From the NCBI GenBank assembly GCA_900317505.1, contig ONHB01000015.1:15831-79830 (forward strand): a stretch of 64,000 bases of DNA. Direction: 5' to 3'. Source of the stretch: an uncultured Lachnospiraceae bacterium. GTDB lineage: Bacteria > Bacillota > Clostridia > Lachnospirales > Lachnospiraceae. A model generated the notes under the pieces. It ran no database searches. It saw only the letters and a program-made list of their open reading frames with translations, and was not told the origin of the DNA. A program made the position numbers and the translations under genes. Positions within the stretch are counted from its first letter, which is position 1. Every line of letters begins with the position of its first letter. This document shows, piece by piece, positions 37,342-54,600 of the stretch.

Positions 37342-37459
37342 TAAAAGATAAGATATTAATTTGATGAAAGAGATACCGGTCAAAGAAAGCACAAAATGTC
37401 GGGATTTATTTTCATGGAATGATATACTTGCATTACAGTGAGCGAAGGGAGTGAAAAAG

Positions 37460-38299: not shown

Positions 38300-38319
38300 G
38301 AGAAAGGGGAATTAGTAGA

Positions 38320-39000
38320 ATGGACAGACCAATCACAACATTATTTATGCTGATGTCAGTTGATGGCAAAATTAGCACTGGGGCATCAGATGAACTGGAT
38401 GTAGACCGGGATTTTCCTGGAATTGATGGACTAAAAGAAGGGCTTCATCAATACTATGAGATAGAACAGACAACTGATTTATGGTCGCTAAACACAGGAA
38501 GGGTTCAAGCAAAGCTTGGTGTTAATCATAAACCAATGCCATCAAAAACTCCAGTATCCTTTGTTCTTATTGATAACTCACATTTGACAGAACATGGAAT
38601 AAAGTATTTTTGTGAGCTATCTAAGCAATTCGTTTTGATAACCACTAATAAGAATCATCCAGCATTTAAGGTTGAGGCTGAAAATCTGGGAATTATTTTT
38701 CAAGAGGAATTCATACTTGAAAAGGCTCTTGAAGAATTGAAGAATCAATATGGCTGTGAAAGAATTACTATTCAAAGTGGTGGAACCATGAATGGCATTT
38801 TTTTACGAAATAAGTTGTTTGATTATGTTGATATCGTTGTTGCACCAGTTCTTGTGGGAGGAAAGGATACCTCAACATTGATTGATGGGGAATCAATAAC
38901 GTCAGTTGATGAGTTAAATAAGCTCGGTGTTATGAAACTTATAGATTGTGAAAAACTGGAAGACTCATATATAAGGCTAAAATACAAAATAACTAGATGA
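38320..39000 (+). CDS. dihydrofolate reductase-like / RibD C-terminal domain family protein
   Basis: MDRPITTLFMLMSVDGKISTG is the typical RibD_C/YwjB start. Confidence 0.7.
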   Translation: MDRPITTLFMLMSVDGKISTGASDELDVDRDFPGIDGLKEGLHQYYEIEQTTDLWSLNTGRVQAKLGVNHKPMPSKTPVSFVLIDNSHLTEHGIKYFCELSKQFVLITTNKNHPAFKVEAENLGIIFQEEFILEKALEELKNQYGCERITIQSGGTMNGIFLRNKLFDYVDIVVAPVLVGGKDTSTLIDGESITSVDELNKLGVMKLIDCEKLEDSYIRLKYKITR

Positions 39001-39007
39001 TGGAGGC

Positions 39008-39598
39008 ATGATGGATAGTATTATTGAAAGGCGAAGCATTAGAAAATATAAGGCACAGGAAATATCTAAAGAACAGATAACAAAAATCATTGAAGCTGCA
39101 ATCAAAGCACCTTCGGCAAAGAATAGGCAGCCATGGAAATATCTTATATACTCTGATAAAGCAAAAAAGCAACTTTTGGATGTAATGGAGCATGGACTTG
39201 ATGAAGAATCCGAAGCACATGCATTACTTCCCAAGTCGGCTGGAGGACTTGCAGATGCGTATAACACGTTGAGAATTATGCGAGAAGCACCAGTTTTGAT
39301 AATTGTTATAAATTCAAACGGTAAATCTCCATTCGAAGATATAGAACCAGATGAGAGGATAACAGAAATATGTGACACGTTGTCATTAGGAGCATCTATT
39401 GAAAACATGTTATTGAAAGCAACAGAGATTGGACTTGGAACGTTATGGATTGCAAATACATGTTTTGCCTATAATGATTTAATTGAATACATAGGCGAAG
39501 AAGGACAGTTAGTAGGAGCGGTTTCTGTTGGTTATCCTGATGAAACGCCAAGTGAAAGACCAAGACATGATATTTCAGAGGTTATTGTATGGCAATAA
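39008..39598 (+). CDS. nitroreductase family protein
   Basis: The nitroreductase N-terminal signature RRSIRKY...PSAKNRQPW. Confidence 0.85.
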   Translation: MMDSIIERRSIRKYKAQEISKEQITKIIEAAIKAPSAKNRQPWKYLIYSDKAKKQLLDVMEHGLDEESEAHALLPKSAGGLADAYNTLRIMREAPVLIIVINSNGKSPFEDIEPDERITEICDTLSLGASIENMLLKATEIGLGTLWIANTCFAYNDLIEYIGEEGQLVGAVSVGYPDETPSERPRHDISEVIVWQ

Positions 39599-39679
39599 AA
39601 TTCTGATTATAGAGTTTCTACACATGTCTTTCCATTACTTTTTATAATAATACAATCCTAGATAATCTCTTGGATTGTA

Positions 39680-40492
39680 TTATTTTTTCTTTTTACCACG
39701 TCCATTTCCTTTTACAGGTTTACAAAGATATGAGTAACGCTGCAGAATATCGGTGAAGGTTTTAAACTCATAGGGATCCATCTTGGTAAAGTTTATTTTG
39801 AAAAGTTTGCTGTACATTATCATCTGAGCTTGCGTTGCATTATCGGCAGTCTTTAGCTCTTCAAATGAGTCGAGTATATCGTCAACAGGAGTAGTTACAT
39901 CACCGGTCTCTGAATCTTTAACATGTGAATCTCTTAAATCTTTTGCGATTTTTACGATATCATTTCCAAGAAGGTTGTTAAAGTAATTATCTTCTGAAAT
40001 AGAAGCTGTCTCTAAAGTTTTCATGTAGTGATCTTCATCAGAGACACCCTTGGTTTGGAGACGGACTCTTGTCTGCTCAATCAGTTTGTTGATGTTCCTA
40101 AATTGCATTCCGGCAAGATTATCAACATAGATTTCCATGTCTGTGAGAAAATTGGTGAACTCAGGATGCTTTATCATTTCGCAAATTAGGCGAGCATTCA
40201 GCTTGCCGCTTTTTAATATCTCTACAGTTTCATCATCTAATCCTAAGTCATCAACTGGGAATCTGTGTTGCTCGCGGTTCTCGGTTAGTCCTAACAAATA
40301 ATCAGATGTTACTCCATAATAATTTGCAAGGGTGACAATAGCCTTGTGTGTAATTTCTTTGTAATCATCAGTTTCATAATTTCCCAGAGATGCTCTGGAG
40401 ATTCCGGTCTGTTCTGCCAGTTCTTGCAGTGACAGACCTTTTTCTATTCGTAAGTCTTTTAACTTTTCCTGGATTGATAACTTGCACTTCAA
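39680..40492 (-). CDS. XRE-family HTH protein with a long C-terminal domain
   Basis: N-terminal HTH_3 (LKDLRIEKGLSLQELAEQTGISRASLGNYE). The remaining ~200 aa match nothing I know. It is divergently oriented from the island genes. Confidence 0.7.
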   Translation of the reverse strand: MKCKLSIQEKLKDLRIEKGLSLQELAEQTGISRASLGNYETDDYKEITHKAIVTLANYYGVTSDYLLGLTENREQHRFPVDDLGLDDETVEILKSGKLNARLICEMIKHPEFTNFLTDMEIYVDNLAGMQFRNINKLIEQTRVRLQTKGVSDEDHYMKTLETASISEDNYFNNLLGNDIVKIAKDLRDSHVKDSETGDVTTPVDDILDSFEELKTADNATQAQMIMYSKLFKINFTKMDPYEFKTFTDILQRYSYLCKPVKGNGRGKKKK

Positions 40493-40706
40493 TGTTCTAT
40501 TTCCCCCAATACGCTTCTTATTTTCCTTTCATATGTCAATCATAACAGAAAGTACATTTGCTATAAAAGGTGAATTCCATAATCGTAGAAATTTTTGTAT
40601 TAAGAATATTTTTCCTACCTCTTGGATATACGGAGTTTGGTTTCTAAATCTTGGATAATTAGCTCATGAACAAAGACTACAAATCACGAGAGGAGGTGAA
40701 AAGCAA

Positions 40707-41057
40707 ATGTTGTTAAATCAGGGATACGTTCCATGTGACAAACAAATTCATATCAAGATTCCGGAAGATCAATTACAGATGATTCATGACAGGATGAAGC
40801 AGATAGGAGTCAAAAACATGAGTGCCTATATCAGGAAGATGGCAGTCGATGGGTATTACATTCACATTGATTTCAGCGAGTTATTAGAAATCATCAAACT
40901 CATGAAAATTGACAGCAACAATATCAACCAGATTGCAAAAGTTGCCAATTCATGTGGCACTGTAGATAGCAAAACAATTTCTGATATGAAGGAGAATCAT
41001 GAGCGAGTTTTGAAAAAGGTAGAAAAGACTTTCAACAAATATTTAGACATTTATTGA
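40707..41057 (+). CDS. MobC-like mobilization accessory protein (RHH plus MobC motif)
   Basis: The N-terminal region is probably a ribbon-helix-helix fold (IHIKIPEDQLQMIHDRMKQ). It also has the MobC-type motif NINQIAKVANSCG (compare NLNQIARALN). No relaxase gene follows. Confidence 0.55.
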   Translation: MLLNQGYVPCDKQIHIKIPEDQLQMIHDRMKQIGVKNMSAYIRKMAVDGYYIHIDFSELLEIIKLMKIDSNNINQIAKVANSCGTVDSKTISDMKENHERVLKKVEKTFNKYLDIY

Positions 41058-41371
41058 CTTCGTTTTCAGCCTGCTTTGCAGGCGTAGCTTGCCGATGCAA
41101 ATTGGCAATCAGGGGGATTGGGGAATACTCCCCAACAAGCAAAATCGCATCAGGTGTACACCGATGCACTGCTTGCCAATTTGTGAAAGGCCAAAAATCT
41201 CATTTAAGGAAGGGGATAGCTGTGAAGAATAAAGTGATAGTAAAAGACAAAGATGAATGGAGTTCTCTTGCAAACTTTATCGGAAATATGATAGCAAAAT
41301 ACGCTGATGAAATTGATTTTGATTCATTACCCAAAGGAGATATATTTATGAATCATATAAAGCATATATGA
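41054..41371 (+). CDS. hypothetical protein (105 aa)
   Basis: Its start overlaps the stop of the MobC-like gene. It has no recognisable motif and may be non-coding. Confidence 0.3.
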   Translation: MTSFSACFAGVACRCKLAIRGIGEYSPTSKIASGVHRCTACQFVKGQKSHLRKGIAVKNKVIVKDKDEWSSLANFIGNMIAKYADEIDFDSLPKGDIFMNHIKHI

Positions 41372-41605
41372 GATTACGTCACACAAAAAAAGAAGTAGGG
41401 CATTGAAGAAAATCATGAGAAATGATACCATAGGTTCATAGATGTGAATGTTATATAAGTGAATTACATGGCGAATATGACATAGGCGGATTTCGCAAAG
41501 AAGGTGGGGATACATAGATGCACATTATCTTTTTTGTGTTTTTATAATACACTTAGCAAAGATTATAGCATTCATACAGTATTACAGAAGATTGGAGGCT
41601 GGTAA

Positions 41606-42655
41606 ATGGCTCTTATAGATACATATCGACACAATGTAACCAGGAAGAGAGATGAAATCGCTAAACTTACTTCAGACAAAGCAAAAGAGAAAGATAAAAT
41701 AGCCAAAGCAAGGATGAAGATTGACAGTGCAAATTCTGCAATTGGTCACACAAAAAATACATCAACTATAAAATCAAAATTGAGAGACATTTCCAATGCA
41801 GAGAAAATTATTACAGCAGCAGAAAAGAAAATATCAGAATTGGAGAAGAAGCTTTCTAAAGCAGAAAAAGATTTAGCAGAAGAGCAAAAAAAAGTGGAGC
41901 GAGAAGAAGAGAAGGCACATAAACAGCGCATGAATGAAGAAATAAAAATGCAGAAAAAAACACAGAGACAAATTTCTGATTTGAGTAGAACTATGCAGTC
42001 GCACGCGAAAATTCAAGATGAGATACATTCACAAATACAAGAACTACAAAAACTGCCAGAAAACATAACGGTACTTTTCCTGGCAGCAAATCCTATTGAT
42101 ACACCCTCGTTGAGACTTGACGCAGAGGCAAGAGCTATTCAGGAGACGATTCGTAAATCTGAATATCGAGATACATTAAAATTCGAGACGCGCTGGGCAG
42201 TTAGAACCTCTGATATACTTCAGGCCATAAATGAAGTCAATCCTGATGTTATTCATTTCAGTGGACACGGAGCACCAAATGGAGACCTTGCATTTGAAAA
42301 CATTAACGGAGAAATGAAATTGGTGAGTAAAGAAGCAATGACTCAAACAATCATGACACTTTCAGATAAAGTGAAATTGATGTTCTTCAACGCCTGTTTC
42401 TCATCAACACAAGCTCAGAGCGTAGTTGAATACGTAGATGTAGCAATAGGAATGAATACTTCGATTGGTGACGAAGCTGCACTCGTGTTTGCGTCACAAT
42501 TCTATTCATCAATTGGCTTTGGGAAGAGTATTAAAACAGCATACGATCAGGCAAAGGCTGCCTTGATGCTTGAAGGAATACCAGAGGAAAAGACACCAGA
42601 ACTATATGTAAGAGATTCACTTAATGCAGAGGATCTTGTGTTAGTGAAAATGTAA
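41606..42655 (+). CDS. coiled-coil protein with a C-terminal CHAT/caspase-like (His-Cys dyad) domain
   Basis: The N-terminal ~150 aa are coiled-coil and K/E-rich. The C-terminal ~190 aa carry ITVLFLAANP...DVIHFSGHG...KLMFFNACFSS. This is the HxGHG and xNAC pattern of CHAT, clan-CD peptidases. Confidence 0.6.
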   Translation: MALIDTYRHNVTRKRDEIAKLTSDKAKEKDKIAKARMKIDSANSAIGHTKNTSTIKSKLRDISNAEKIITAAEKKISELEKKLSKAEKDLAEEQKKVEREEEKAHKQRMNEEIKMQKKTQRQISDLSRTMQSHAKIQDEIHSQIQELQKLPENITVLFLAANPIDTPSLRLDAEARAIQETIRKSEYRDTLKFETRWAVRTSDILQAINEVNPDVIHFSGHGAPNGDLAFENINGEMKLVSKEAMTQTIMTLSDKVKLMFFNACFSSTQAQSVVEYVDVAIGMNTSIGDEAALVFASQFYSSIGFGKSIKTAYDQAKAALMLEGIPEEKTPELYVRDSLNAEDLVLVKM

Positions 42656-42670
42656 GGCGAGGTTTTAATT

Positions 42671-43033
42671 ATGATTATCAGCGAAAGAATTATAAAGGTT
42701 ATGCAGGAACGCAATATGACACAGGCGGATTTTGCAAAGCAGGTTGGTATTTCAACCAGTACCATAAGCGAATGGAAAAAGAGAAAAACAAATCCTACTG
42801 TGGAAAAGATAATGGATATTTGTAATGTCTTACAAATTACGCCGGAGCAGCTTCTTACCGGTAAAGGAATTGAGGATGAGGAAGAAATTGCCGCTTCAAG
42901 TCCTGAGAGTAAATTTACTCCAGGAGATGTTCAGATGATTGAAGATTATCATAACCTCAGAGAAGAGCAGCAAAAGCGTCTTATGGCTTATATGGAGGCT
43001 CTGAAGAAGATAGAGAGTCTTGAAGATATATAA
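42671..43033 (+). CDS. XRE-family HTH transcriptional regulator
   Basis: HTH_3 (MTQADFAKQVGISTSTISEWKK). It lies 15 nt downstream of the CHAT-like gene. Confidence 0.8.
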   Translation: MIISERIIKVMQERNMTQADFAKQVGISTSTISEWKKRKTNPTVEKIMDICNVLQITPEQLLTGKGIEDEEEIAASSPESKFTPGDVQMIEDYHNLREEQQKRLMAYMEALKKIESLEDI

Positions 43034-43055
43034 ACAAGATGTGTAAATTAAATAT

Positions 43056-43089
43056 CATTTGAGGTTCCAATTTGGAACCTCAAATGAAA
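43056..43089. repeat. perfect 15-bp-arm palindrome (catttgaggttccaa at ttggaacctcaaatg)
   Basis: I read it directly. One arm recurs inside the downstream ORF6N gene at ~43352-43372 (attggaacctcaaatgatgaaaa). Confidence 0.7.
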
Positions 43090-43114
43090 ATGTTTTATAT
43101 AGATGAGGTGGCGT

Positions 43115-44074
43115 ATGGATGAAGTTGTAACAAATGAAGAGAATAAGACAATTGAAAGAACCGGTCAGAACATTGATATTTCTCAATTGATTTATGTTAT
43201 ACGAGGAAGACAAGTTATGATAGATAGCGATTTGGCAATTCTGTATCAGGTTGAGACCAAGAATATCAATAAAGCAATGAAAAGAAATATTAAAAGATTT
43301 CCCGATGACTTTTGCTTTCAATTATCTTCAGATGAAGAGAAGGAATTGAAGTTCCAGATTGGAACCTCAAATGATGAAAAAACTCGTGGCGGTAGAAGAT
43401 ATCCCCATTATGTTTATACAGAACAGGGAATTGCTATGCTATCTGCAGTGTTGAAAAGTGATGTTGCAATCCAAGTAAGTATCCGAATTATGAAGACTTT
43501 TGTTGAGATGAGGAAATACTTAGCAAATAATGCATTAATCATTGAAAAAATAAATTCTATAGAAAAAAGACAGATTGCAGGTGAGATAGAGCAAATAAGT
43601 TATCGTGAAGAAACTGAAAATAAATTCGAAGTGATTTTTGATTATATAGAATCGCATAAAGAGGATAATCAGAAGATTTTCTTTGATGGTCAGATATTTG
43701 ATGCGTTCAGTTTGTTAACAGATATTATTGGATACGCGAAAAAAGAAATTATATTGATTGACGGGTATGTTGATGTAATCACATTAAATATACTGGCAAA
43801 GAAAAGCATAGGGGTTAATGTTTTTGTATATACACTTCCGAGTACAAAGATATCTGCACAGGACATTACCAATTTTAATGCTCAGTATCCTACATTAACG
43901 GTAAAAAAGACAACGGCATTTCATGACCGTTTTCTAATTATAGATGGTGCTGAGGGGTATCATATCGGAGCATCTCTTAAGGATGCAGGAAAGAAATGTT
44001 TCGGAATAAATAAAATAGAAGGGACAGATGTAATTAACAATCTAATTAATAAGGCTTTACAAACGTCTAAGTAA
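43115..44074 (+). CDS. ORF6N (KilA-N/antirepressor-like) domain protein with a C-terminal PLD-like HxR(x4)D...GASLKD domain (paralog 1)
   Basis: ORF6N signature (IRGRQVMIDSDLAILYQVETKNINKAMKRNIKRFPDDFCFQL ... YVYTEQGIAMLSAVLKS). The C-terminus has FHDRFLIIDGAEGYHIGASLKDAGKK. An alternative start lies at 43103. Confidence 0.75.
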   Translation: MDEVVTNEENKTIERTGQNIDISQLIYVIRGRQVMIDSDLAILYQVETKNINKAMKRNIKRFPDDFCFQLSSDEEKELKFQIGTSNDEKTRGGRRYPHYVYTEQGIAMLSAVLKSDVAIQVSIRIMKTFVEMRKYLANNALIIEKINSIEKRQIAGEIEQISYREETENKFEVIFDYIESHKEDNQKIFFDGQIFDAFSLLTDIIGYAKKEIILIDGYVDVITLNILAKKSIGVNVFVYTLPSTKISAQDITNFNAQYPTLTVKKTTAFHDRFLIIDGAEGYHIGASLKDAGKKCFGINKIEGTDVINNLINKALQTSK

Positions 44075-44091
44075 AATAGGGGTGATTCTGA

Positions 44092-45765
44092 TTGGGTAAA
44101 GAAAAAGTAAAAGTCTATTTATACACTCGTGTTTCAACGGCCATGCAGATAGATGGATATTCTTTGGATGCGCAGAAGTCTCGGATGAAGGCATTTTGTG
44201 AATTCAATGAATATGAGATAGTTGGCGAGTATGAAGATGCAGGCAAGTCCGGTAAATCGATTGAGGGGCGTGTTGCATTTAACAACATGATGGAGGACAT
44301 CAAATCCGGAAAAGATGAGGTATCTTTTGTTCTTGTATTTAAACTTTCCAGATTTGGTAGAAATGCGGCTGATGTTCTCAATTCACTTCAGATTATGCAG
44401 GACTTTGGCGTAAACCTGATTTGTGTCGAGGACGGTATTGATTCGTCAAAAGAAGCAGGAAGACTAATGATTTCTGTATTGTCTGCTGTTGCAGAGATTG
44501 AGCGTGAAAACATACGTGTGCAGACTATGGAAGGTCGTATGCAGAAGGCAAGAGAAGGAAAGTGGAATGGTGGGTTTGCTCCATATGGATATGCACTAGT
44601 CGATGGTAAACTTGAAGTAAATGAAGAGGAAGCTGTTGCTATCAGAACTATTTTTGAACAATATGTTAATACGGACATGGGATCAAACGGTATTGCAAAA
44701 TATTTGGAAAATCATGGGATACACAAGATAGCAAGACAAAATGGAAAAAATCCACTTTTTGATGCTTCGCTCATTCGCCGTATCATTCAGAATCCTGTTT
44801 ATTGTGGAAAGATAGCTTATGGCAGAAGAAGAACGGAAAAAGTTCACGGAACAAGGAATGATTACAGGCAGGTTTATAAAGATGATTATCTGCTTGTAGA
44901 TGGGCTTCATGAAGCTTTGGTTTCTGAAGAAGTTTGGGAACAGGCACAGATAAAAGTAGCAGCTCAGGCTAAAAAATATGAAAAAGTCAATTCTCCTAAA
45001 GGTGAGAAAATACATCTTTTATCAGGTGTATTAAGGTGCCCTGTCTGTGGTGCAGGCATGTATGGGAATAAAAGTATTAAGCATAGAAAAGATGGCACAA
45101 AGTACAGTGATTATTTTTACTATGGCTGTAAGCACCGCAATATGACCAGAGGGCATAAATGTGATTATAGAAAACAGGTATCTGAAATAAAGCTCGATGG
45201 AGCTGTAGTTGAAGTCCTGCGAAAGCTAGTGAGCAATAAGAAATTTGCTGGGATGATGCGTGAGAAAATCAATATGGAAGTTGATACCATAGCACTTGAT
45301 CAGGAAATATCTGCTCAGGAAAAGACGCTACGCCAGAGTTACTTGAATAAAGATGCCATACTTTCAGATTTGGACAACTTGGATTATGAAGATAAGCATT
45401 ACAAGAGAAGGAAAGCAGATTTAGAGGATCGCCTTAGTAAGACTTATGATAAAATCGAAGAGACAGAAAACGCTTTAGTAGAAGCTAAAGCTAAGAAGAG
45501 GTCGATACTTGCTGAAAAGGTTTGTGGAGATAATATCTATAAAGCGCTAATCTTTTTCGATAAAATGTATGAACCAATGAATGAAGCGGAACGCAGAGAG
45601 TTCCTGACACAATTCATTGAAAAGGTTGAGATTTACGAAGAAGAACAAGAGAACGGTCAATGGCTTAAATCCATAGAATTCAAGCTTCCTATCATTTCAA
45701 AGGATATGAAGATTAGTTTGGACAATGGTTCGCATGTTGAGACGGTGGCGCTGTTGACTAAATGA
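44092..45765 (+). CDS. large serine recombinase (serine integrase/resolvase family)
   Basis: An N-terminal resolvase catalytic domain (VYLYTRVSTAMQ, with the catalytic Ser), a recombinase domain, a zinc ribbon CPVCGAGMYG...YYGC and a C-terminal coiled coil. A TTG start with an AGGGGTGA ribosome-binding site is likely. Confidence 0.85.
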   Translation: MGKEKVKVYLYTRVSTAMQIDGYSLDAQKSRMKAFCEFNEYEIVGEYEDAGKSGKSIEGRVAFNNMMEDIKSGKDEVSFVLVFKLSRFGRNAADVLNSLQIMQDFGVNLICVEDGIDSSKEAGRLMISVLSAVAEIERENIRVQTMEGRMQKAREGKWNGGFAPYGYALVDGKLEVNEEEAVAIRTIFEQYVNTDMGSNGIAKYLENHGIHKIARQNGKNPLFDASLIRRIIQNPVYCGKIAYGRRRTEKVHGTRNDYRQVYKDDYLLVDGLHEALVSEEVWEQAQIKVAAQAKKYEKVNSPKGEKIHLLSGVLRCPVCGAGMYGNKSIKHRKDGTKYSDYFYYGCKHRNMTRGHKCDYRKQVSEIKLDGAVVEVLRKLVSNKKFAGMMREKINMEVDTIALDQEISAQEKTLRQSYLNKDAILSDLDNLDYEDKHYKRRKADLEDRLSKTYDKIEETENALVEAKAKKRSILAEKVCGDNIYKALIFFDKMYEPMNEAERREFLTQFIEKVEIYEEEQENGQWLKSIEFKLPIISKDMKISLDNGSHVETVALLTK

Positions 45766-45817
45766 TCGGTGGCAGATAATAATGGTTGATATGTTAAAAA
45801 TATAGTGAAGTATGAAA

Positions 45818-45868
45818 AAAAGGACATCCAGAGCTGTAGATTTTACAGGTCATGAGATGTCCTTTTTG
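45818..45868. terminator. bidirectional terminator between the recombinase and fic
   Basis: The hairpin aaaaaggacatc..gatgtccttttt. Confidence 0.45.
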
Positions 45869-45918
45869 CAGATATGGGAGCAATCAATAGACAAGTAAAG
45901 AAGAATATTTTAAAGGAA

Positions 45919-46965
45919 TTACTTTAATCTGTAATAGCAAGTCCCTTTACCTTTGCCTTCTTTTTTTAGTTCACCTAATGAAATAAGATCTCTAAACGCT
46001 TTTTCTATTGAGCTATCGCTAAGTGTTGGGCAGAGTTCGCGAGTATCCTGTTTATTGAAACGACCTATTTTATTCATGCTTGCCCGTCTGACCATTTCAA
46101 GAGCAGAAAGCTTGGTTTCAACAAGGGAAAAACGATCTCCAAAATCTTTGTAGGCTGCAAGAATGGTTCCAAGCAGATATTTAATAAAAGGCACTACATT
46201 TTCGGTTCCCTCGTGCCATCCGAGTTGCGATTCTGAAAGTGCACCGTAATACAGATCTTTATTCTTAGCAATTTTTGCTTCTAGGGAAATATACTTTCCG
46301 ACATAAAAGCCATTTCTATATAGAAGTAACGTAGTGAGCAGACGACTCATTCTACCGTTACCATCATTAAACGGATGAATACACAAAAAATCATGGATGA
46401 AGGTAGGAATAATAATTAGTGGCTCTACTTCCATATTTCCGATTACGCGGTTATATTCCTCACAGATTTTATTCAAGGCCTCTGGTGTTTCAAATGGGGA
46501 TAAGGGAGTGAATAGCGTTTCAACGTGTCCATCCGGATAGGTTTCACTTATATAATTTTGTACATTTTTGGTTTTGCCACCCATAGGATTATTCATATGG
46601 CTATATAAGATCTTGTGAAGCTGCAAGATATAATTTTGAGTAATAGGTATGGCATCAAAATTTTCGTGAATAATGTTAAGTGCGTCACGATAGCCGGCAA
46701 TTTCTTGTTCATCTCTATTTTTAGGTGTTGTCTTTTCTTCCACGAGCTGTTTGATGCGGGTGTTTGTAGTGATAATACCCTCAATAGCATTAGATGCCTC
46801 GGTGCTTTGTATCTTTGCTATTTCAACCAATTTTTCTAATTCCTGAGGTTTTTGTTTAAGATACAACTCTTGTTTTCCTGCTTCTTTGTATATAGCAGCA
46901 ATCAATCCCAGAATACCTGAGTCCCATTTTTGGTTTTTAATTTCGGAGTAATTAAATGTTCTCAT
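45919..46965 (-). CDS. Fic family protein (Fic/Doc AMPylase-type) with a C-terminal winged HTH
   Basis: The Fic motif HPFNDGNGRMSRLL, which is HPFx(D/E)GNGR. Confidence 0.85.
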   Translation of the reverse strand: MRTFNYSEIKNQKWDSGILGLIAAIYKEAGKQELYLKQKPQELEKLVEIAKIQSTEASNAIEGIITTNTRIKQLVEEKTTPKNRDEQEIAGYRDALNIIHENFDAIPITQNYILQLHKILYSHMNNPMGGKTKNVQNYISETYPDGHVETLFTPLSPFETPEALNKICEEYNRVIGNMEVEPLIIIPTFIHDFLCIHPFNDGNGRMSRLLTTLLLYRNGFYVGKYISLEAKIAKNKDLYYGALSESQLGWHEGTENVVPFIKYLLGTILAAYKDFGDRFSLVETKLSALEMVRRASMNKIGRFNKQDTRELCPTLSDSSIEKAFRDLISLGELKKEGKGKGTCYYRLK

Positions 46966-47210
46966 TACCTTATCTCACTTTCTTTCCCTTAAAATATAAC
47001 TTAAAATAAGGGAAAATGCAATGTTATAAGGGAAAAATACCTTAATATTATCTTTAATTAAAGGTAAAATATGCAGAAATCGGAACCACGGGCTTGGTAT
47101 GAAGATCATTATAAAAATTGACACGACATGACATAATCAGATTGACAAAAGAAATGCGAGTTTTTATAATATAGACAAAATGAAAATGACATGATTGGAG
47201 AGATAGAGAG

Positions 47211-47489
47211 ATGAAGAAAGTTGTAACATTTGAAGAGGCATTAAAAAGAATTGAGGAATTGGAAAAAGAGAACGAAGAACTTCAAGAGGAATTGGAGTAT
47301 TACAAAAATCGGAAATTGAGTGGTCGGCAGAAACATAATGCCAAGTGGATGGCGATTTATAATGATTTTGTCAGTGGATATGAGAGTGGTATGACGATGG
47401 TAGAAATTGCAAAGCGAAACAATGTCAGTGAGAGGACGATTTATAGGTATAAAACGTATTATGACAAAATGAAGGAAAAAGAGGAATAG
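47211..47489 (+). CDS. small coiled-coil plus HTH protein (IS3/sigma-70 region-4-like HTH)
   Basis: MTMVEIAKRNNVSERTIYRYK. Confidence 0.55.
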   Translation: MKKVVTFEEALKRIEELEKENEELQEELEYYKNRKLSGRQKHNAKWMAIYNDFVSGYESGMTMVEIAKRNNVSERTIYRYKTYYDKMKEKEE

Positions 47490-47569
47490 AGCATTTTACT
47501 GGCGGCAGCAAAATGTTATATGAGAATTGCGGTCAATTTTTTTGACCGCAAAATGGATGGAGGAGTTCT

Positions 47570-48619
47570 GTGGCAGAAGATAAAAGGAAAGAAATTGATG
47601 TTACAGTAATAGAAGTAACAGAAGAATATCTAAAAGAAAAACTGTATAAAATTAGGGGTAAAAGGGTATTGCTTGATGCTGATTTAGCAGAGATATATGG
47701 CTATGACACGAAAGGATTTAATAGGCAGGTAAAAAATAATATTGAGAAATTTGATGAAGATTTTATGTTTGAATTAACAGATGAGGAATTAGAAGATTTG
47801 CGGTACAAAAATTGTACCGCAAATATAAGTTCAAAAAGTCGTTATAATCCTCATGTATTTACAGAGCAAGGATTATATATGCTGATGACTGTCTTGAAAG
47901 GACCGTTGGCTGTTAAGCAGAGCAAGGCATTAATAAGAACCTTTAAGAAAATGAAAGATTACATATTAGAAAATCGTGATTTAATAGGTCAGCGGGAAGT
48001 ACTTCAGTTAAGCATGGAGACCGCTAACAACAGAATAGAAATTAACAAAATCAACTCAGATATGATATCTCTTGAAAAGCAGATTTCAGATGTTGCAGAA
48101 GGCTTGAAGGATGTTGTAACAAAATCTGAGTTGGCTGATATGATGAACGGCTTTGTTTCAGATGATGATGACAAGTGGCTCATGTTTAATGCAAAATTCA
48201 GTAGTGCAGATGAGGTATATGCGTCCATTTATAAGCAGGCAAAATCGTCAATATATGTCGTTGATAATTATATTGGATTAAGAACGCTGGTACACCTTAA
48301 GAATTCTCCAACCGGAGTAGATATTATTTTATTCAGCGATAATGTTGGAAATAATAAACTTCACAATATAGAATTTACGGATTTTTGCAAAGAATATCCA
48401 TCCGTAAAAATATCAATGAAAAAGACTGGAGGTATATTCCATGATCGATTTATAGTGTTGGATTATGGAACTGCTGATGAAAGAGTTTTCTTATGTGGTG
48501 CTTCATCCAAGGATGCAGGTGCTAGAATAACCAGTATTGTTGAAGATTATGGAATATCTAAATATGCTCCGGTTATTGCCACACTGTTGAAAAATCCAAC
48601 CTTGATTTTGCCACAATAG
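47570..48619 (+). CDS. ORF6N domain protein with a PLD-like HxR(x4)D...GASSKD domain (paralog 2)
   Basis: IRGKRVLLDADLAEIYGYDTKGFNRQVKNNIEKFDEDFMFEL ... HVFTEQGLYMLMTVLKG, with a C-terminus FHDRFIVLDYGTADERVFLCGASSKDAG. GTG start with a GGAGG ribosome-binding site. Confidence 0.75.
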   Translation: MAEDKRKEIDVTVIEVTEEYLKEKLYKIRGKRVLLDADLAEIYGYDTKGFNRQVKNNIEKFDEDFMFELTDEELEDLRYKNCTANISSKSRYNPHVFTEQGLYMLMTVLKGPLAVKQSKALIRTFKKMKDYILENRDLIGQREVLQLSMETANNRIEINKINSDMISLEKQISDVAEGLKDVVTKSELADMMNGFVSDDDDKWLMFNAKFSSADEVYASIYKQAKSSIYVVDNYIGLRTLVHLKNSPTGVDIILFSDNVGNNKLHNIEFTDFCKEYPSVKISMKKTGGIFHDRFIVLDYGTADERVFLCGASSKDAGARITSIVEDYGISKYAPVIATLLKNPTLILPQ

Positions 48620-48689
48620 AAGAGAGTGAAAGTATTGGAAAAGAAAACTGGATGTTACATGTTATTGCGCAATTTGTAGGAGAAATGCC

Positions 48690-51600
48690 ATGGCAGAAAG
48701 TACAGAATTAATGACGATAGATAATATTAGTAATCGAGTTTATGTCATAAGAGGCCAGCAAGTGATGCTGGATTATGATTTGGCTGGACTCTATGGCTAT
48801 GAAGTGAAGGCACTAAATCAGCAGGTAAAAAGAAATATTGATAGATTTCCAGAAGATTTTATGTTTCAACTAAAAAAAGAAGAAGTGCCAACGGAGTTTT
48901 CAAAGTCACAATTTGTGACTTTGAATGAAAATGGAGATAAAAGGGGCACTAATATAAAGAAAATGCCTTACGCATTCACGGAGCAAGGAATCTATATGCT
49001 CGCCACTGTTCTAAGAGGAAAACTTGCGGAACAACAAAGTATATTCATTATGCGTGCATTTCGTGAGATGCGTCATTATATAAAACAGAATCAACAGTTT
49101 GTTACACAGTCGGAGATGCGGCTTGTTACTGCAAAAGTATCGGAGATATCAGCACAGGTTGCCGGTGTTGTAGATTGGAAGAATAAAGCAGAAGAAAAAT
49201 TTGATGGTATTCAGAGAAGTATAGATTTACTGAATGAAAACTTTGTTTCAGAGAAGGATTTCAAAAATTTTGTAATCTATAAAGGGCAGAAATTTGAAGC
49301 GGATGCTGCATACATAGATATATATCAGCAGGCAGAAAAGAGCATTTATGTAATAGATGATTATGTGAATACAAAGACTTTACAACTTTTATCACAGAAG
49401 CAAGTTGGTGTAGAAGTCGTTTTATTTACAGAAAACGGTCATGGAAAAAGAGGTTTTTTGACAACAGCGGTGGTAAATGACTTTATGCAAGAATATCCTT
49501 CGTTGCGGATTAAGCCCAATGCAGATTGTCATGACAGGTTGATCGTTCTTGATTATGGTTTGTCTACAGAGCAGGTATATCATTGTGGTGCATCCAGTAA
49601 GGACGCAGGAAAGAAACTTTGTGCTATAAATATAATACTAGAAACAAGTATGATTCATCCGGTAATGCATGATTATGCAATTACAGCCATTGAGGATCTG
49701 GATAAAGACGTGAAATATCAGGTGCTGTCTTATAAAGCCTTGGAAAGCGATGTCATATTCCCGGACAGTCTGGAAGTGACGGCAGAGTATACCACTTATG
49801 AGCAGGTATCTGAAAATGGATTCACAGAAAATACCGTATCTGATAATACCAAAATAAAAACAGAAACAAAAAATATTACTATAAATGATATTACATGGAA
49901 ACTGGATAAGGATCAGAGCGATTTTGACGTTTTTACCAGCAGTGAAGAAGAGCTGGAGGATTGCGGCGGTGCATATTTTGTCTATACAGCCGATATTCCC
50001 AAAAAGGATAAAGACGGCAATACCTATACGCTGGCAGAAGGAATTGCACTGCCTGAAATTGAAGTAATGGTAGGTGATGCCACTGCCGGAATCATGACCC
50101 TGTCAAGTGGTGAAATGCTGGATGTTTCCGATTTGGAAACCCGTAGCATCTCCTTTGGTTTTGGCTATTCTGACTATATTGTCATTGATTCGGAAAATGT
50201 CAGTGATTTTGACGGAAAGACTCTGACAGGAACCACCACAAATGGTATTTTCATCAGCGATGGTGTGACTGTTAATCTGACAATTGAGGACTTGAATATC
50301 ACGAAGTCTGAGGACATCAGCTCCTGCATCAGTGTCGGCTATGATGCTACGCTGAATCTTACTGTAAAGGGAAATAATACTCTGACGGCTACCGGTTGGG
50401 GCGGAGCAGGCATTGAGGTTATGGGACAGCATAAAGCGACTCTGCGGATTACCTCAGATAGTACAGGCACACTTACCGCTAATGGCGGTTATGGAAGTAA
50501 ACAATATGGCAACTTTGGTGGTGCCGGAATCGGTGGTATGGCCAGAATCGCCACTGATATTAATCAGATATATGTTGGTAATATCATCATCGAGGGAGGT
50601 ACGATCAATGCTACCGGTGGTTATCAGGCAGCCGGTATTGGTGGAACGATAGGTGCAAGTGGAGGAAATATTACAATCACCGGAGGTACAGTCACTGCTA
50701 CGGGCGATTCGGGTGGTGCCGGAATCGGTGGAGGCTTCAATGGTAATGTAGATTCCATTACCATAAGTGGTGGTATTGTTACGGCCAATGCAGGCGATCA
50801 TGCTGCTGCGATTGGTGCAGGCAAGGATACATCATTGGATCAGGCTTATGTACTTCCTTTTAATACCATCAGGATAACCGGTGGTACTGTAACCGCCAAC
50901 GGGAATATCGGCTATGGAAAAATTGTATATAGAGATACTCCTGCCGATCCGGGTACGATTGAGATTTCAGAAGATGTTAATTTTACGCTGAACGGTGAGA
51001 TTACATTAGGAAGCAGTGATACCACCAGTTCCGGAAAGTATACGCTTCATTTCACAATCCATGATGGCAGATTAACGAAGGACACGACTGCAAAAATCAC
51101 ATATAGCGATGATAACAAGATAATAACGGATAATGCCCGTGTTTCACTTTTGCAAAATGGTAAGGCAGAGGGAAGTGCCAGCTTTATTACCACGAGCAGT
51201 CTGGCAGGGGAACAGACCTTTATCTTTACGATAGATGGCCGGACCTATACAAAGACAGTAACTATTGATAACAGCTCATCAAAGATCGATATGGAGATTG
51301 GTACACCGCTTTATCCGGTGACGCTGGAGTTTTATGGTGCAGCAATCAGTGAGGATTTGGACATTTCTTCTATTACTGTAAAGCAGGACGGAAAAGAGCT
51401 TTCAGCAGATAATGGGGAGTTTTATGCTCCTTTGGCTATCAGTTATAACCGGTATGGCTATGGTATAATGCTCTGTTATCTTCCCCAAAACAGTGACAGT
51501 ACTGAGATTTCTGTGACAGCTGTCGGTTTAAATGATGGGAATGCTATGACTGTGTCCGATCAGACTGTTTCTGCAGACAGTGATAATACCATTACCATGT

Positions 51601-54600
51601 TTACAACAACGGATATTCTGCTTGCAGTCACGGCAGAGGTGTATGGCGATTCTGCGATTATTCACGCGGAGACAAATAAGAAAGATAAAAGTCTTTGTCT
51701 TCATTATACATCTAGTGATGTTCCGATTACTACCGTAGAAGAATTTAAAAATATAAAAGCATCCGATAGAAAAAATGCAGATATCAGCAATGGTTCGGTG
51801 GATATCACGATTGACAATTTAGAGGAAAACAAAACCTACGAGTATTACTTTATGGTGAGCCCGATAACTTTTCTTAATGATAAGTCATCCAACATCGTCC
51901 ACCTGACTCTTACAACGTCGGCGGTAGCAGAAGTGATAAAGACAGATGGAACAAGTGAAAAATACACGACCTTTGATGCTGCAGTCGAGGCAGCAGCAAA
52001 TGAGACAGGTTGTACCGTGAAGCTTATAAAGGATGCAAAAACATCCGGCGGTGTGGTTTTAAATGGAGATTTTACACTTGATTTAAATGGGAAGACCCTT
52101 AAAACAACATCAGAATATCAGTATTATACCCTTGAAATAAAAGGAAAAATAACAATCAAGGATAGTGCCGGTGGAGGCAAAATTACAGGTTTTACGATTG
52201 ATGGTCTGATACATGGCTCAGAAGGCGCAAGCCTTACAATCCTTAGTGGAATCTTTGAATATACAGGTACTGTTACTTCGGCACCGGCCCCATTGTGCTG
52301 GGGCGATAAGGCTGATTTATCTGTGCAGGGAGGGATGTTTAAAAGCACTAAGTATTCCATGGAAATATTGGATCTGTCACAGGATGAGTTAAGTGCCAGC
52401 AGGATTGGACTATCTGGAGGACGTTTTTGCAATGGTATATTACAAAGCACCAATGGCTATGCAACCGCAGGCCAGCTTTTATCCCCCGGTTATGCTTATC
52501 AATATATGTCCGGTGACAATGCTGGAAAGCTGACAACCGGAGATATAAGTAAGACAGATGATGTAGAGATTGTACCGGCCAGCCTGCAGGGAAGCCTGAT
52601 TGCTACAGCAGATACTGTTTCTGTCGGAGACACAATAACTGCCACATTTGCAGTTGATACCGGTAAATGGGTAAACAGCAGTGCAATCGGAAATTATACC
52701 TATACATGGTATCGCGTAGGTGAAAATGAGGATACTGTCATTCAGACAAAAGCTGCTACCACTGATACAACCGATACTTACAAGCTTACGGAGGATGACA
52801 TTCACAGTCAGATTTACTGTGTCGTCACAGCAGAAAAATGTGGCGGTAATGTAACATCCAATGAGATAACAGTGCCCGGACTGTCTATCAGTGAGGCGAA
52901 GGTTACACTTTCTGAGGAGAACCTTTCTTATAATGGAAAGGAACAGACTCCGACCGTCAATGTGGAGTTAAACGGAAAAACATTGACGGAAGATAATGAT
53001 TATAAGGTTACCTATATCAATAACAAAAATATCGGTACCGCGACCGTATATATTACAGGAAATGGCAAGTATGAGGGAGCAGTTTCCAAAGAATTTACCA
53101 TTACAAAGAGAAGTGTGACGGTATCCGGTATCACAGCGCGGGAGAAAATCTACGATGGCACATCCAAAGCTAAACTGAATTTTGACCAGATGAAGCTTGA
53201 TGGTGTGTTAGCCGGTGATAACCTGACTGTGAGCGCCGAAGGAACATTTTCCGATGCGGATGCAGGAGAGAATAAGACGGTTACAATTACCGGTCTGACT
53301 CTTAGTGGTACAGATATGGAAAATTATATGCTGGCGGAGAGCGGACAGCAGACTACTACCAGCGCTACGATCAGGCAAAAGTCTGTCATATTGGAATGGA
53401 GCGACAATACTGCCTTTACTTATAATGGCAGCAAGCAGAGTGTGACCGCTACGGTAAGCAATGCAGTTGGAAACGATAGCTTTGCACTTTTATATGAGAA
53501 TAATGGCACGATCAAAAATACGGCAACAGAAGTTGGCAACTACACGGCAAAGGTCATTTCGCTCGGCAATGACAACTATATTCTTGATGGAGCAACCGAC
53601 ATTTCGAAGGAATGGTCTATCAGTTATGTGACAGCAGACGATGCCACACTTTCCGGAACAAAGGGAGATAATGGCTGGTATACAGGAGCAGTTACCCTGA
53701 CAGCTCCGGCTGGTTATACCATTTCAAATGATAAAAACACCTGGCAGGATACCTTAACGATAAATGTGGAGGGAACGTCGACTGTCAGATATTACCTGAA
53801 AGATAAAAATGGCGGCATTACGGATGCAAAGATGGTGGAAATAAGGATTGATTCGGTTAATCCGACCGGAGAGATCAAGATAAAAGATAACAGCTTTAGA
53901 AGCTTATTAAATACCATCACCTTTGGATATTTCTTCAAGGAAACAGTCAGTGTGAGCATCACGGGAGCAGACAAGACCAGTGGTGTGGGTACCATCGAAT
54001 ATCAAAAGACAGCTGGAACAGATAGCTATGATGCAAATGGAACATGGATCGATGGCAGTAGCTTTACTGTAGCACCAAGCGAAAAATTCACTGTTTATGC
54101 CCGGATCACGGACAATGCCGGCAATCGGACGATCATCAATTCCGAGGGCGTTGTGGTATATGAGGATGTGGCAGCTGCTTCAAGTACAAGCTTTACCAAA
54201 ACCTCTACAAAAGATCTGGATGCAGGTCTTACCCTGAATGGAAATACAGTAGCCGATATCATAAAAGATGGAGCCAGTCTTGCAGCAGGCAGTTATACCG
54301 TAGCGGATGACAGACTGATATTTAAGGCTGACTATCTGAATACGCTTGCGGCAGGAACCTATACAATGACTGTCTCTTACAATCCGCTTGGAGAGATTTA
54401 TGAAAACGGTACCAGCGCAGGTGATGCACCGCAGACGAGTGTCATTACGCTGACCGTAAAAAAAGCAGATCTGACAGTTTCCGCTGTCCCGGTAACAACA
54501 TCTGCCACATACAGCCCTTCTGCATCATTGGATAATAACTTTACCCTGACGGGAGGAAGTGTGAAAGCAGCTGTAGACGGTGTGGAAAAAACGGTGGAAG

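Follow-up and report, generated by a model that had tools for sequence, protein, structure and literature searches.

The stretch of DNA that we analysed (the window; 64,000 nucleotides) contains three genes whose products join an ORF6N head, through one long helix, to a C-terminal domain with the fold of the phospholipase D (PLD) superfamily, and on balance we consider it probable that they are single-chain defence-type proteins of the PDC-S05 kind, in which head, pairing helix and a PLD phosphodiesterase with a variant active site act together on DNA. A palindrome embedded in the head-coding region may matter even more than the PLD assignment, as a cis element that the whole family carries within its coding sequence.

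All three open reading frames claimed in an earlier, sequence-only reading of the window are present on the plus strand (Table 1), and the shared architecture that it described (ORF6N domain, linker, C-terminal domain) is borne out, each copy consisting of an ORF6N head, a single long helix and a C-terminal domain. The proposed Pfam check placed ORF6N (PF10543) in every copy, with 107.8, 115.6 and 116.7 bits (E 3e-31 to 6e-34) against a gathering threshold of 27.8 bits. Pairwise identity, put at roughly 30-40% by eye, measures 30% between copies 1 and 2, 39% between copies 1 and 3 and 38% between copies 2 and 3. The mechanical open reading frame of copy 1 begins at 43103; its start is most likely at 43115, as the reading had it, given the GAGGTGG ribosome-binding site upstream and the 319 aa that gene callers assign on identical contigs. 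In the structure model of copy 1, the low-confidence loop of the head spans aa 80-94.

Table 1. Positions of the features discussed, in window coordinates.
Feature	Positions	Strand	Description
Integrative mobilisable element	37041..45746	+	8.7 kb, carries copy 1; delimited by empty-site comparison
CHAT protein	41606..42655	+	coiled coil and CHAT protease domain; PADLOC PDC-S66 and chat models; element cargo
Xre-type HTH protein	42671..43033	+	directly 5' of copy 1; from domain search
Upstream palindrome	43055..43087		perfect, 33 nt, between Xre-type HTH gene and copy 1 start; z -7.8
Copy 1	43115..44074	+	319 aa; ORF6N head about aa 12-113, helix aa 116-180, PLD-fold domain aa 187-317
Copy 1 intragenic palindrome	43346..43370		TTGAAGTTCCAGATTGGAACCTCAA; encodes L78-S85, at start of low-confidence loop
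Copy 1 motifs	43922-43945; 43967-43990	+	HDRFLIID; GASLKDAG; read from the sequence
Large serine recombinase	44092..45765	+	Resolvase, Recombinase and Zn_ribbon_recom (Pfam); last codons cross right junction into host sequence
Fic-domain gene	45919..46965	-	SoFic-like (SoFic E 9.5e-38); resident island; in all strain variants
HTH_7 protein	47211..47489	+	92 aa; perfect TTGACA-17-TATAAT promoter match at 47142-47170
Copy 2	47570..48619	+	349 aa; architecture as copy 1
Copy 2 intragenic palindrome	47796..47824		ATTTGCGGTACAAAAATTGTACCGCAAAT; 13-bp arms; z -8.4
Copy 2 motifs	48440-48463; 48497-48520	+	HDRFIVLD; GASSKDAG; read from the sequence
Copy 3	48690..49667 (end approximate)	+	architecture of copy 1 type, lacking last 11 codons and stop, fused in frame downstream
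Copy 3 intragenic palindrome	48899..48925		TTCAAAGTCACAATTTGTGACTTTGAA; perfect, 12-bp arms; z -4.7
Copy 3 motifs	49530-49553; 49587-49610	+	HDRLIVLD; GASSKDAG; read from the sequence
Surface-protein part of 2478-aa ORF	49668..56126	+	beta-helix, YDG and CBM_X2 repeats; C-terminal LPATG sorting signal and hydrophobic anchor

The family is one that has been named before. All three copies match the PADLOC model PDLC04869 (ORF6N-PLD) end to end, over about positions 7-302 of 306 (E 1.5e-120, 2.3e-103 and 7.5e-106), and judged by this profile match the architecture is already catalogued as the candidate defence gene PDC-S05, a single-gene system, in agreement with the conflict- or defence-type family that the reading had suggested. 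PDC-S05 was defined via co-localisation and head-domain similarity, not mechanism, and its model set is heterogeneous, with many different C-terminal domains. One tested member, reported only as RhuM-domain-bearing, protected E. coli (PMC12881386). The candidate is frequent in gut and rumen genomes, with 3,275 loci in one rumen survey (PMC13356809), and the family to which ORF6N-PLD proteins belong ranks with the most abundant among the uncharacterised defence candidates of these genomes.

The C-terminal domain is marked by a fixed signature. The motifs HDR(F/L)(I/L)(V/I)(L/I)D and GAS(S/L)KDAG occur in all copies as had been noticed; the 11-residue spacer between them holds for copies 2 and 3, whereas in copy 1 it is 7 residues long, and across the family the signature reads H-D-R-x4-D-x7-11-G-A-S-x-K-D-x-G. 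HDR is found in 130 of 137 cluster representatives (clustered at 50% identity), and an alignment of 49 diverse full-length members shows no variation at H, D, R, D, S, K, D and G, so the motif is not a product of chance. Variation at H, R and D across the wider family would have spoken against the original proposal, and this alignment shows none.

Monomer models give this domain the PLD alpha/beta fold. The sequence-only reading had seen in it an HKD-like site with Arg in place of Lys; the fold and the substitution stand, whereas the canonical signature HxK(x)4D(x)6G(S/T)xN is absent, with Lys at the expected Asn position, and the anticipated PLDc_2 assignment failed. No copy in the window is matched by the Pfam PLDc_2 model, and among relatives weak matches occur in 26 of 123, the best reaching 19.9 bits (E 7e-4) against a threshold of 27. 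Searching solved structures by sequence, with a single protein and with the 49-sequence profile, returned chance coiled-coil matches only. Because canonical HKD proteins, sought across all fetched loci for a local profile-profile alignment, were not found there, the residue-level equivalence of HDR with HKD that we infer rests on the fold, the strand position and the boundaries of the PLDc_2 matches. It may be that a PLD active site tolerates a Lys-to-Arg change where a second Lys lies nearby. In the literature we found no description of a PLD fold for the PDC-S05 C-terminus, nor of an HxR/SxK signature. With the PLD fold and the constant H-D-R / S-x-K-D signature, the ORF6N-PLD family gains a concrete candidate mechanism that can be tested by point mutants, and a connection with BfiI-, SauUSI- and Nuc-type nucleases.

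The second conserved element lies in the DNA itself. An intragenic palindrome with arms of 9-18 bp is present in all ORF6N genes, a related one in RhuM-type heads, and its consensus is TTGAGGT(C/T)NCAA-W-TTGN(G/A)ACCTCAA; the palindrome upstream of copy 1 is 90% identical to the one inside that gene, 287 nt downstream. Subfamilies differ in the frame in which it is translated, all three frames being used, and compensatory changes together with codon choice preserve it in bacteria, archaea and phages. We reject the possibility that the peptide forces it, since 10.9 of 12 pairs are observed versus 5.8 of 12 under synonymous recoding, and for 86% of genes the observed pairing is matched by fewer than 1% of recodings. 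Nor do we favour a sense or antisense RNA hairpin: next to 919 Watson-Crick pairs, G.U-type and A.C-type pairs are equally rare (17 and 18), and Rfam covariance models returned only a chance-level snR63 (E 0.031), below the gathering score. A recombination breakpoint at the palindrome was likewise rejected, because similarity correlates across it at 0.40, at least as strongly as inside either flank, and of 28 close pairs just 1 is discordant across it when segments are anchored on the motif, as this test requires if variable loop length and tandem palindromes are not to produce a registration artefact. The palindrome is selected at the nucleic-acid level, strongly enough to shape the encoded loop peptide.

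What it serves for we can suggest only tentatively. Our leading guess, possible although we would not call it probable, is that the palindrome is the cognate site of the head itself, a self-contained operator or a "self" mark travelling with the gene to any place of insertion. Were this so, the gene could regulate itself independently of its promoter, or a toxic effector could be sequestered, and the ORF6N and RhuM domains, which are widespread but functionally opaque, would have their first candidate DNA target. If the palindrome acts otherwise, for example as a hairpin signal, it would still be a new class of intragenic element. The parS site inside parB/spo0J is a palindromic protein-binding site conserved within the coding sequence for the very protein that recognises it; it is a precedent only and has no sequence relation to the ORF6N palindrome, whose binding by the head is putative. 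Looking in the literature for a palindrome or inverted repeat in connection with ORF6N or RhuM, we found nothing relevant.

The model that we favour can be put as follows. The ORF6N head, a predicted nucleic-acid-binding module, would position the phosphodiesterase on DNA, while the helix of about 65 residues would most likely pair two chains as a coiled coil; a dimer is plausible given the length of this helix in the models. By analogy with single-HKD enzymes, the dimer would build one catalytic centre from two PLD domains, with Arg standing for the HKD Lys and Lys for the Asn of GSxN, and cleavage of invader or host DNA could then stop phage spread. Alternatively, the proteins could be regulators or anti-repressors of the TrmB/TrmBL2 type, dimers or tetramers that bind the palindrome inside, and in some cases upstream of, their own gene to control transcription, and whose non-cutting PLD-like domain binds a phosphate-bearing ligand or serves oligomerisation. 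Foldseek aligns the whole chain to 5box, 5bpd and 3qph over about 300 columns. We nevertheless regard such a regulator as rather unlikely, since even very divergent members keep H, R, D, S, K and D without exception, residues that to our knowledge no non-catalytic PLD-like domain preserves. Further, the head is ORF6N rather than a TrmB winged helix (a TrmB match in Pfam was absent), and relatives combine the PLD domain with RhuM-N, KilA-N or Xre HTH heads as well, as would be expected of an effector module that is shuffled among heads. ORF6N genes that lack a PLD domain contain the palindrome too, which is for this reason uninformative on the role of that domain.

The genomic setting of copy 1 raises the question of whom such a protein would serve. 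This copy is cargo of an integrative mobilisable element, together with AraC/GyrI-like, RibD_C, nitroreductase, HTH, NikA/MobC, CHAT and Xre HTH proteins and a large serine recombinase. The element is inserted into a U5-methyltransferase (rumA-like) gene, within its 3' end, and has the features of a large-serine-recombinase integrative element: a recombinase with the characteristic domains at one end, a site seen both with and without the element, and a 16-nt imperfect repeat at the junctions (cgaatgtagagacggt at 37025-37040 and cgcatgttgagacggt at 45731-45746). In seven empty-site contigs (L091, L095, L096, L098, L101, L103, L104) window position 37040 is joined to 45731, these sister strains lacking copy 1 along with its element, and an eighth contig (L099) has a different element at the same methyltransferase site. 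That the ORF6N genes are the target of the recombinase was rejected, the attachment site being within the methyltransferase gene. In one relative (P0176, locus L008) the N-terminal part of the Xre HTH protein is fused to a PLD domain of the copy 2 type.

The genes might accordingly be accessories of mobile elements or phages, serving their carriers as anti-repressors, anti-defence proteins or addiction modules. The ORF6N head is a usual part of phage regulatory proteins and shows a weak Phage_pRha overlap in Pfam, copy 1 is itself element cargo, some relatives lie on Bacteroides plasmids and in conjugative-transposon-like regions, and the full architecture is present in about 20 of 80 retained viral-contig loci. 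On the other side, many relatives reside in chromosomal type I restriction-modification loci; among 50,697 deposited phage genomes only 4, each an uncultivated fragment, contain the PLD C-domain, and any relative at all is encoded by only 128 of 2.9 million viral contigs, mostly as the head. We therefore hold an accessory role to be improbable.

Copies 2 and 3 belong to a resident island. The serine recombinase and the Fic gene that had been placed near the copies both exist, the former in the mobilisable element and the latter in the resident island, and the HTH_7 gene probably heads an operon that continues with copies 2 and 3. Copy 3 had been taken as the first ~330 aa of the open reading frame at 48690; this holds from the head to residue 326, up to which a free-standing 337-aa relative (P0242) is 83% identical (~nt 49667), whereas the last 11 codons and the stop have been replaced by the reading frame of a surface protein. 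No signal peptide is visible from the copy 3 junction to the surface-protein part, and GC climbs from 0.36 to 0.435 near 50000. The fusion is not an assembly artefact, because the identical 2478-aa product occurs on 22 contigs examined (38 index blocks) from independent samples; it is frameshift-split in L098 and shortened in L101. A local tandem duplication was rejected as the source of the three copies, which fall into different subfamilies and have their closer relatives elsewhere; moreover, the empty-site strains lack copy 1. Their clustering is an accretion of horizontally acquired DNA, in which copy 1 would have arrived on the serine-recombinase element, and copies 2 and 3 would lie in an older low-GC island whose right end became fused to a truncated surface-protein gene.

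Such a history invites the view that the copies, and copy 3 above all, are functionless pseudogenes left by successive insertions. Copy 3 lacks its 3' end and runs into a surface protein devoid of a signal peptide, copy 2 commonly has frameshifted relatives (P0127, 273 members, is split into ORFs of 195 and 159 aa), and metagenomes hold many truncated or chimeric family products, including S18-, ABC- and DUF1016-PLD chimeras whose junctions may be real or due to assembly. Copies 1 and 2 are nevertheless intact and have kept every invariant residue and their palindromes, copy 3 retains all motif residues and a perfect palindrome, and identical copies are found across many samples, the copy 2 protein on at least 23 contigs; decay thus seems very improbable to us.

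Set beside known systems, the defence-type phosphodiesterase that we favour has several partial counterparts. The NCBIfam model of the VPA1262 N-terminal domain is locally similar over HDR..GASxKD (model positions 414-452; copy 1 E 1.3e-7), a lead and not a membership, the scores for NF040699 and NF040700 being 30.7 bits against a cut-off of 80 and 15.6 against 325. Juno, of the VPA1262 family, is an experimentally supported anti-phage protein (bioRxiv 10.64898/2026.08.01.741415). Juno proteins are about 1000 aa long and have no ORF6N head. RhuM-N-PLD proteins (PDC-S05 model PDLC04879) share the HDR/GASxKD domain and their genes adjoin ORF6N-PLD genes in three loci (L032, L047, L056); they match only the first 87 of 252 RhuM profile positions, and canonical RhuM (PF13310; PADLOC PDC-S23) differs from them in its C-terminal domain. 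TrmB and TrmBL2 (3qph, 5bpd, 5box) place a long helix between a DNA-binding head and a PLD-like domain, as our copies do, but their head is a winged helix, and the TrmB PLD-like domain, which serves sugar binding or oligomerisation, is not known to carry the HKD-type residue set that is invariant, as H/R/D/S/K/D, in the ORF6N-PLD family. The remaining comparators are single-HKD PLD nucleases, namely Nuc (1bys), NucT (6ehi), Zucchini/PLD6 (4ggj), BfiI (2c1l), NgoAVII (4rct) and the SauUSI PLD domain (7clg). In Nuc, NucT, BfiI and Zucchini two domains and two histidines form one catalytic centre. These nucleases carry H-x-K..D..G-S-x-N where the motif here is H-D-R..D..G-A-S-x-K-D; the copies in the window, for which catalysis is predicted, have their domain joined to an ORF6N head via a 65-residue helix.

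An ORF scan of the window bore out the central observation of the sequence-only reading, namely that three ORFs share one architecture, each with an ORF6N head matched by Pfam far above threshold and each carrying HDRxxxxD and GASxKDAG in its C-terminal domain. Their pairwise identities (30%, 39% and 38%) agree with the 30-40% estimated by eye, and the 11-residue spacer proposed between D and G holds for copies 2 and 3, whereas copy 1 has a spacer of 7. For copy 1, start 43115 is favoured over the mechanical ORF start 43103 by a GAGGTGG ribosome-binding site and by gene calls on identical contigs. The family comprises 4,266 cluster representatives (E up to 0.001), with HDR carried by 130 of the 137 listed, and the H, R, D, S, K and D columns of the motif are indeed invariant in 49 diverse full-length members, the complete set being D220, H274, D275, R276, D281, S291, K293, D294 and G296 (copy 1 numbering, counted from 43103).

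Features of the three-copy region and of its relatives (window positions unless stated otherwise)
Feature	Position	Strand	Details
Copy 1	43115-44074	+	319 aa
Copy 2	47570-48619	+	349 aa
Copy 3	48690 to ~49667	+	first 326 codons of the 2478-codon ORF (48690-56126)
Palindrome upstream of copy 1	43055-43087		perfect 33 nt; 90% identical to copy 1 internal site
Palindrome, copy 1	43346-43370		one mismatch
Palindrome, copy 2	47796-47824		13-bp arms
Palindrome, copy 3	48899-48925		12-bp arms
Insertion	37041-45746		8.7 kb
Flanking repeats of the insertion	37025-37040, 45731-45746
CHAT candidate defence gene	41606-42655		coiled-coil + CHAT protease; PADLOC PDC-S66 and chat models
SoFic-like Fic candidate defence gene	45919-46965		E 9.5e-38
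Sigma-70 promoter match	47142-47170		TTGACA-17-TATAAT
VPA1262 sub-threshold match	copy 1 aa 264-298, copy 2 aa 283-323
P0127-type split gene	L002 7439-8480; L003 673-1714
Chimera set			proteins P0128, P0137, P0143, P0148, P0176, P0188, P0209, P0230; loci L001-L010

The PLD-like interpretation proved largely right as regards the fold. Modelled at full length (pLDDT 81), copy 1 has its ORF6N head (aa 12-113) followed by one unbroken helix (aa 116-180) and then by a PLD domain (aa 187-317), in which H-D-R opens a strand that D closes and G-A-S-x-K-D comes after the next strand; this placement we take to be the strand-turn-strand position of HxK(x)4D(x)6GSxN in Nuc-type enzymes. Pfam PLDc_2 matches were only weak (26 of 123 family members, best 1.3e-4), and each of those inspected covers profile positions 2-95 of 132 and ends right after ...FHDRFIILDGKTAYHI, boundaries that would be consistent with HDR aligning to HxK. 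Foldseek aligned the C-terminal part to NucT, FAM83, F13 and Zucchini, and the whole chain to TrmBL2 and TrmB, which likewise have a long helix between their head and their PLD-like domain.

The PLD module is shuffled among DNA-binding heads: RhuM-N heads precede this PLD-type domain at three loci (L032, L047, L056; first 87 RhuM profile positions only), a KilA-N head does so in one of 49 members, and Xre-type HTH heads in many clusters. The full architecture occurs in Firmicutes, Bacteroidota, Desulfobacterota, Campylobacterota and Kiritimatiellia, and also in archaea (Methanosarcinales, Woesearchaeota, Methanimicrococcus; L037, L039-L041, L053; P0450), whose full-length relatives reach 66% identity to copy 1 in a Methanimicrococcus protein, thus implying recent transfer between bacteria and archaea. 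The neighbourhoods are of the restriction-modification kind, with type I HsdM the commonest neighbour family (11 of 80 genome loci), followed by HsdS and HsdR and then by genes characteristic of conjugative transposons of Bacteroidota. At 11 of these 80 loci the search gave two or more separate head or C-domain matches within ~20 kb; at least 6 of them contain another family gene, full or partial and always in the same orientation, RhuM-N-PLD beside ORF6N-PLD included. Among phage records the PLD C-domain was found in 4 of 50,697, all uncultivated fragments, and among plasmids in 60 of 72,556, mostly from Bacteroides; 128 of 2.9 million viral contigs carry any relative, in most cases head-only.

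Together with the PADLOC match described below, the fold, the invariant residues, the shuffled module and these neighbourhoods make up the observations behind the best-supported reading, which we hold to be slightly on the probable side: two chains, each of head, helix and PLD domain, would pair, and the head would direct the PLD phosphodiesterase to DNA in defence. Dimerisation, catalysis, substrate and phenotype are what we infer here. The main rival takes the protein for a DNA-binding regulator of the TrmB type, with a PLD-like domain that serves to bind a ligand or to oligomerise, because a Lys-to-Arg change kills canonical PLD1 and PLD2 and several of the closest structures are non-catalytic; we consider it rather improbable.

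The rapid local diversification by which the clustering had been explained was not borne out. The clustering of the three copies is accretion, copy 1 lying on an insertion that is missing from sister contigs. The proteins of copies 2 and 3 were looked up by exact match, and of the many same-species contigs that this yielded, seven (L091, L095, L096, L098, L101, L103, L104) pass directly from the U5-methyltransferase gene to Fic, HTH_7, copy 2 and copy 3. In BLAST alignments of two of these (L091, L098), at 99.9% identity, window position 37040 is joined to 45731 and the two sides overlap by 16 nt; the intervening 8.7 kb is therefore an insertion in the 3' end of the U5-methyltransferase (rumA-like) gene, whose C-terminus it alters. 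It is a large-serine-recombinase integrative mobilisable element, flanked by the repeats cgaatgtagagacggt and cgcatgttgagacggt, with NikA/MobC, a CHAT protein (PDC-S66), an Xre HTH and copy 1 as cargo, and with the recombinase at its right end, the last codons of which cross the junction into host sequence. In L099 this site is occupied by another recombinase element, which carries a STAND NTPase, and in two contigs (L092, L100) the left half is again another. All strain variants share copies 2 and 3, the SoFic-like Fic and the HTH_7 gene, which lie in a low-GC stretch (0.35-0.37 vs ~0.44). A perfect sigma-70 match 41 nt upstream of the 92-aa HTH_7 gene suggests, at the level of sequence, that this gene, copy 2 and copy 3 may form one strongly promoted operon.

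Copy 3 matches the free-standing 337-aa protein P0242 only as far as residue 326 (junction near 49667), past which come beta-helix, YDG and CBM_X2 repeats and then LPATG and a membrane anchor, ~2150 residues of a surface protein that has no visible signal peptide. The fusion is identical on the 22 contigs read, from independent samples, and is therefore real (it is frameshifted in L098 and shortened in L101); in our reading, a deletion or insertion cost the surface-protein gene its 5' end and left this fusion as a scar.

Separately, in many metagenome proteins a copy 2-type PLD domain (88-97% identical) is joined to unrelated N-termini, among them Xre HTH (more than 20 clusters), ribosomal protein S18, ABC ATPases, DUF1016 and a serine-recombinase fragment; altered C-termini were also seen. 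The junctions cluster at MMNSF, LMFNAKF and VDNYIG, and several contigs stop exactly at window position ~48139. This set may reflect real rearrangements or assembly chimeras: the HTH fusions, one of which (P0176) occurs in a syntenic relative, have the look of genuine deletion products or of an alternative architecture, and misassembly could account for those seen on a single contig. In a copy 2-type gene that is widespread on chromosomes (P0127, 273 member sequences), a frameshift separates a 195-aa ORF6N part from a 159-aa PLD part.

The most surprising result is a conserved palindrome inside the head-coding sequence. It came to light in a terminator scan, which picked up hairpins at homologous codons of copies 1 and 2 and, shortly before the start of copy 1, a perfect palindrome. 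The 64 kb contains only four palindromes whose arms are 11 bp or longer, and three of them are the sites of these genes. At this position the 36-nt folding energy averages -13.9 kcal/mol over 95 family genes of the 80 genome loci, vs mostly -3 to -5 elsewhere in the same genes. At least 9 of 12 Watson-Crick pairs are present in 90 of the 95 genes. In a 75-sequence alignment, pairing reaches 92.9% of cells vs 70.1% in shuffles (reached by 0/500); this figure is slightly inflated because sequences were centred on their best palindrome, but 90/95 passed the filter. Double-sided changes in that alignment number 194 against 49.6 expected, with 10 of 12 pairs covarying, and slid controls pair at 22-43%. 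Synonymous codon resampling yields 5.8 of 12 pairs vs 10.9 observed, and in 86% of genes less than 1% of recodings attain the observed pairing. The site is maintained by codon choice and by compensatory changes.

The consensus is TTGAGGT(C/T)NCAA-W-TTGN(G/A)ACCTCAA, with arms of 9-18 bp and a centre of 1-3 nt, and the site is present in almost all members of the family (L011-L090, L105-L184); T at -6 and C-A-A at -3 to -1 are near-invariant and the other positions vary in step. Pure mutational drift is argued against by persistence across phyla. G.U-type and A.C-type mismatches are equally rare (17 and 18), a pattern that favours symmetry at the DNA level over an RNA hairpin specific to one strand and that speaks against a role at the RNA level, itself a possible reading. 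The site is read in different frames: its centre nucleotide is codon position 1 in 79 genes (peptide L-R/K-x-Q-x-x-T-S), position 2 in ~10 genes with the same GGTCACAAATTGTGACC (E-L-V-T-N-C-D-R-L) and position 3 in RhuM-type heads, which carry ACTGTCGCAAATTTTGCGACAGT (A-T-V-A-N-F-A-T-V-Q). In copy 1 the peptide (L78-N86) lies in the head's only low-confidence loop (aa 80-94, pLDDT <50), a modelled position that would fit weak protein-level constraint there.

Palindromes centred on CAA-W-TTG with arms of at least 8 bp number 104 in 1.2 Mb and are almost confined to these genes; 12 lie 200-500 nt upstream, near the start codon, and 13 are tandem duplicates. Some 13% of genes, copy 1 among them, have an extra palindrome near the start codon, and head-only ORF6N genes of viral contigs carry the site as well. 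Our leading guess, a tentative one, is that the head domain binds this site itself, which would then serve as an operator or mark of self carried along with the gene. Another factor might instead recognise it as a hairpin or cruciform, or template switching might have made the two arms evolve in concert. Forty-three viral contigs (L185-L227) contain an exact copy of the commonest ORF6N palindrome core, the 19-mer AGGTCACAAWTTGTGACCT; it lies inside ORF6N genes 14 times and outside them 29 times, 27 of the latter with no ORF6N gene in the fetched stretch; by their sequence, most of the 29 look like bidirectional intrinsic terminators. Intergenic copies were seen in ~20 distinct phage contexts, between A-runs and T-runs. 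A recombination breakpoint at the palindrome was also considered, and the test was negative once registration was fixed. An Rfam search with the palindrome gave no match, and a literature search for such a site in ORF6N or RhuM genes gave no relevant paper.

The ORF6N-PLD family is a catalogued defence candidate that is mechanistically unstudied, a literature search for its PLD fold or mechanism having found no paper. RefSeq labels relatives 'ORF6N domain-containing protein' or 'RhuM family protein'. In PADLOC, each of the three copies matches model PDLC04869 end to end (E 1e-103 to 1e-120). This model belongs to the candidate defence set PDC-S05, whose ~40 models have RhuM-type or ORF6N-type heads in common and various C-termini; the RhuM-N-PLD form is represented by PDLC04879, and canonical RhuM is catalogued as PDC-S23. 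In E. coli, a PDC-S05 gene picked at random is reported to have lowered plating of T7 and T5 ~1000-fold and of T4 ~10-fold (2026 paper, PMC12881386); that paper describes the gene solely by its Virulence_RhuM domain. The HDR..GASxKD stretch also gives a weak local match, well under cut-off (E 1.3e-7), to the N-terminal-domain model of VPA1262, a family recently named Juno that protects against several coliphages (bioRxiv 10.64898/2026.08.01.741415), and Juno may contain this variant PLD module too.
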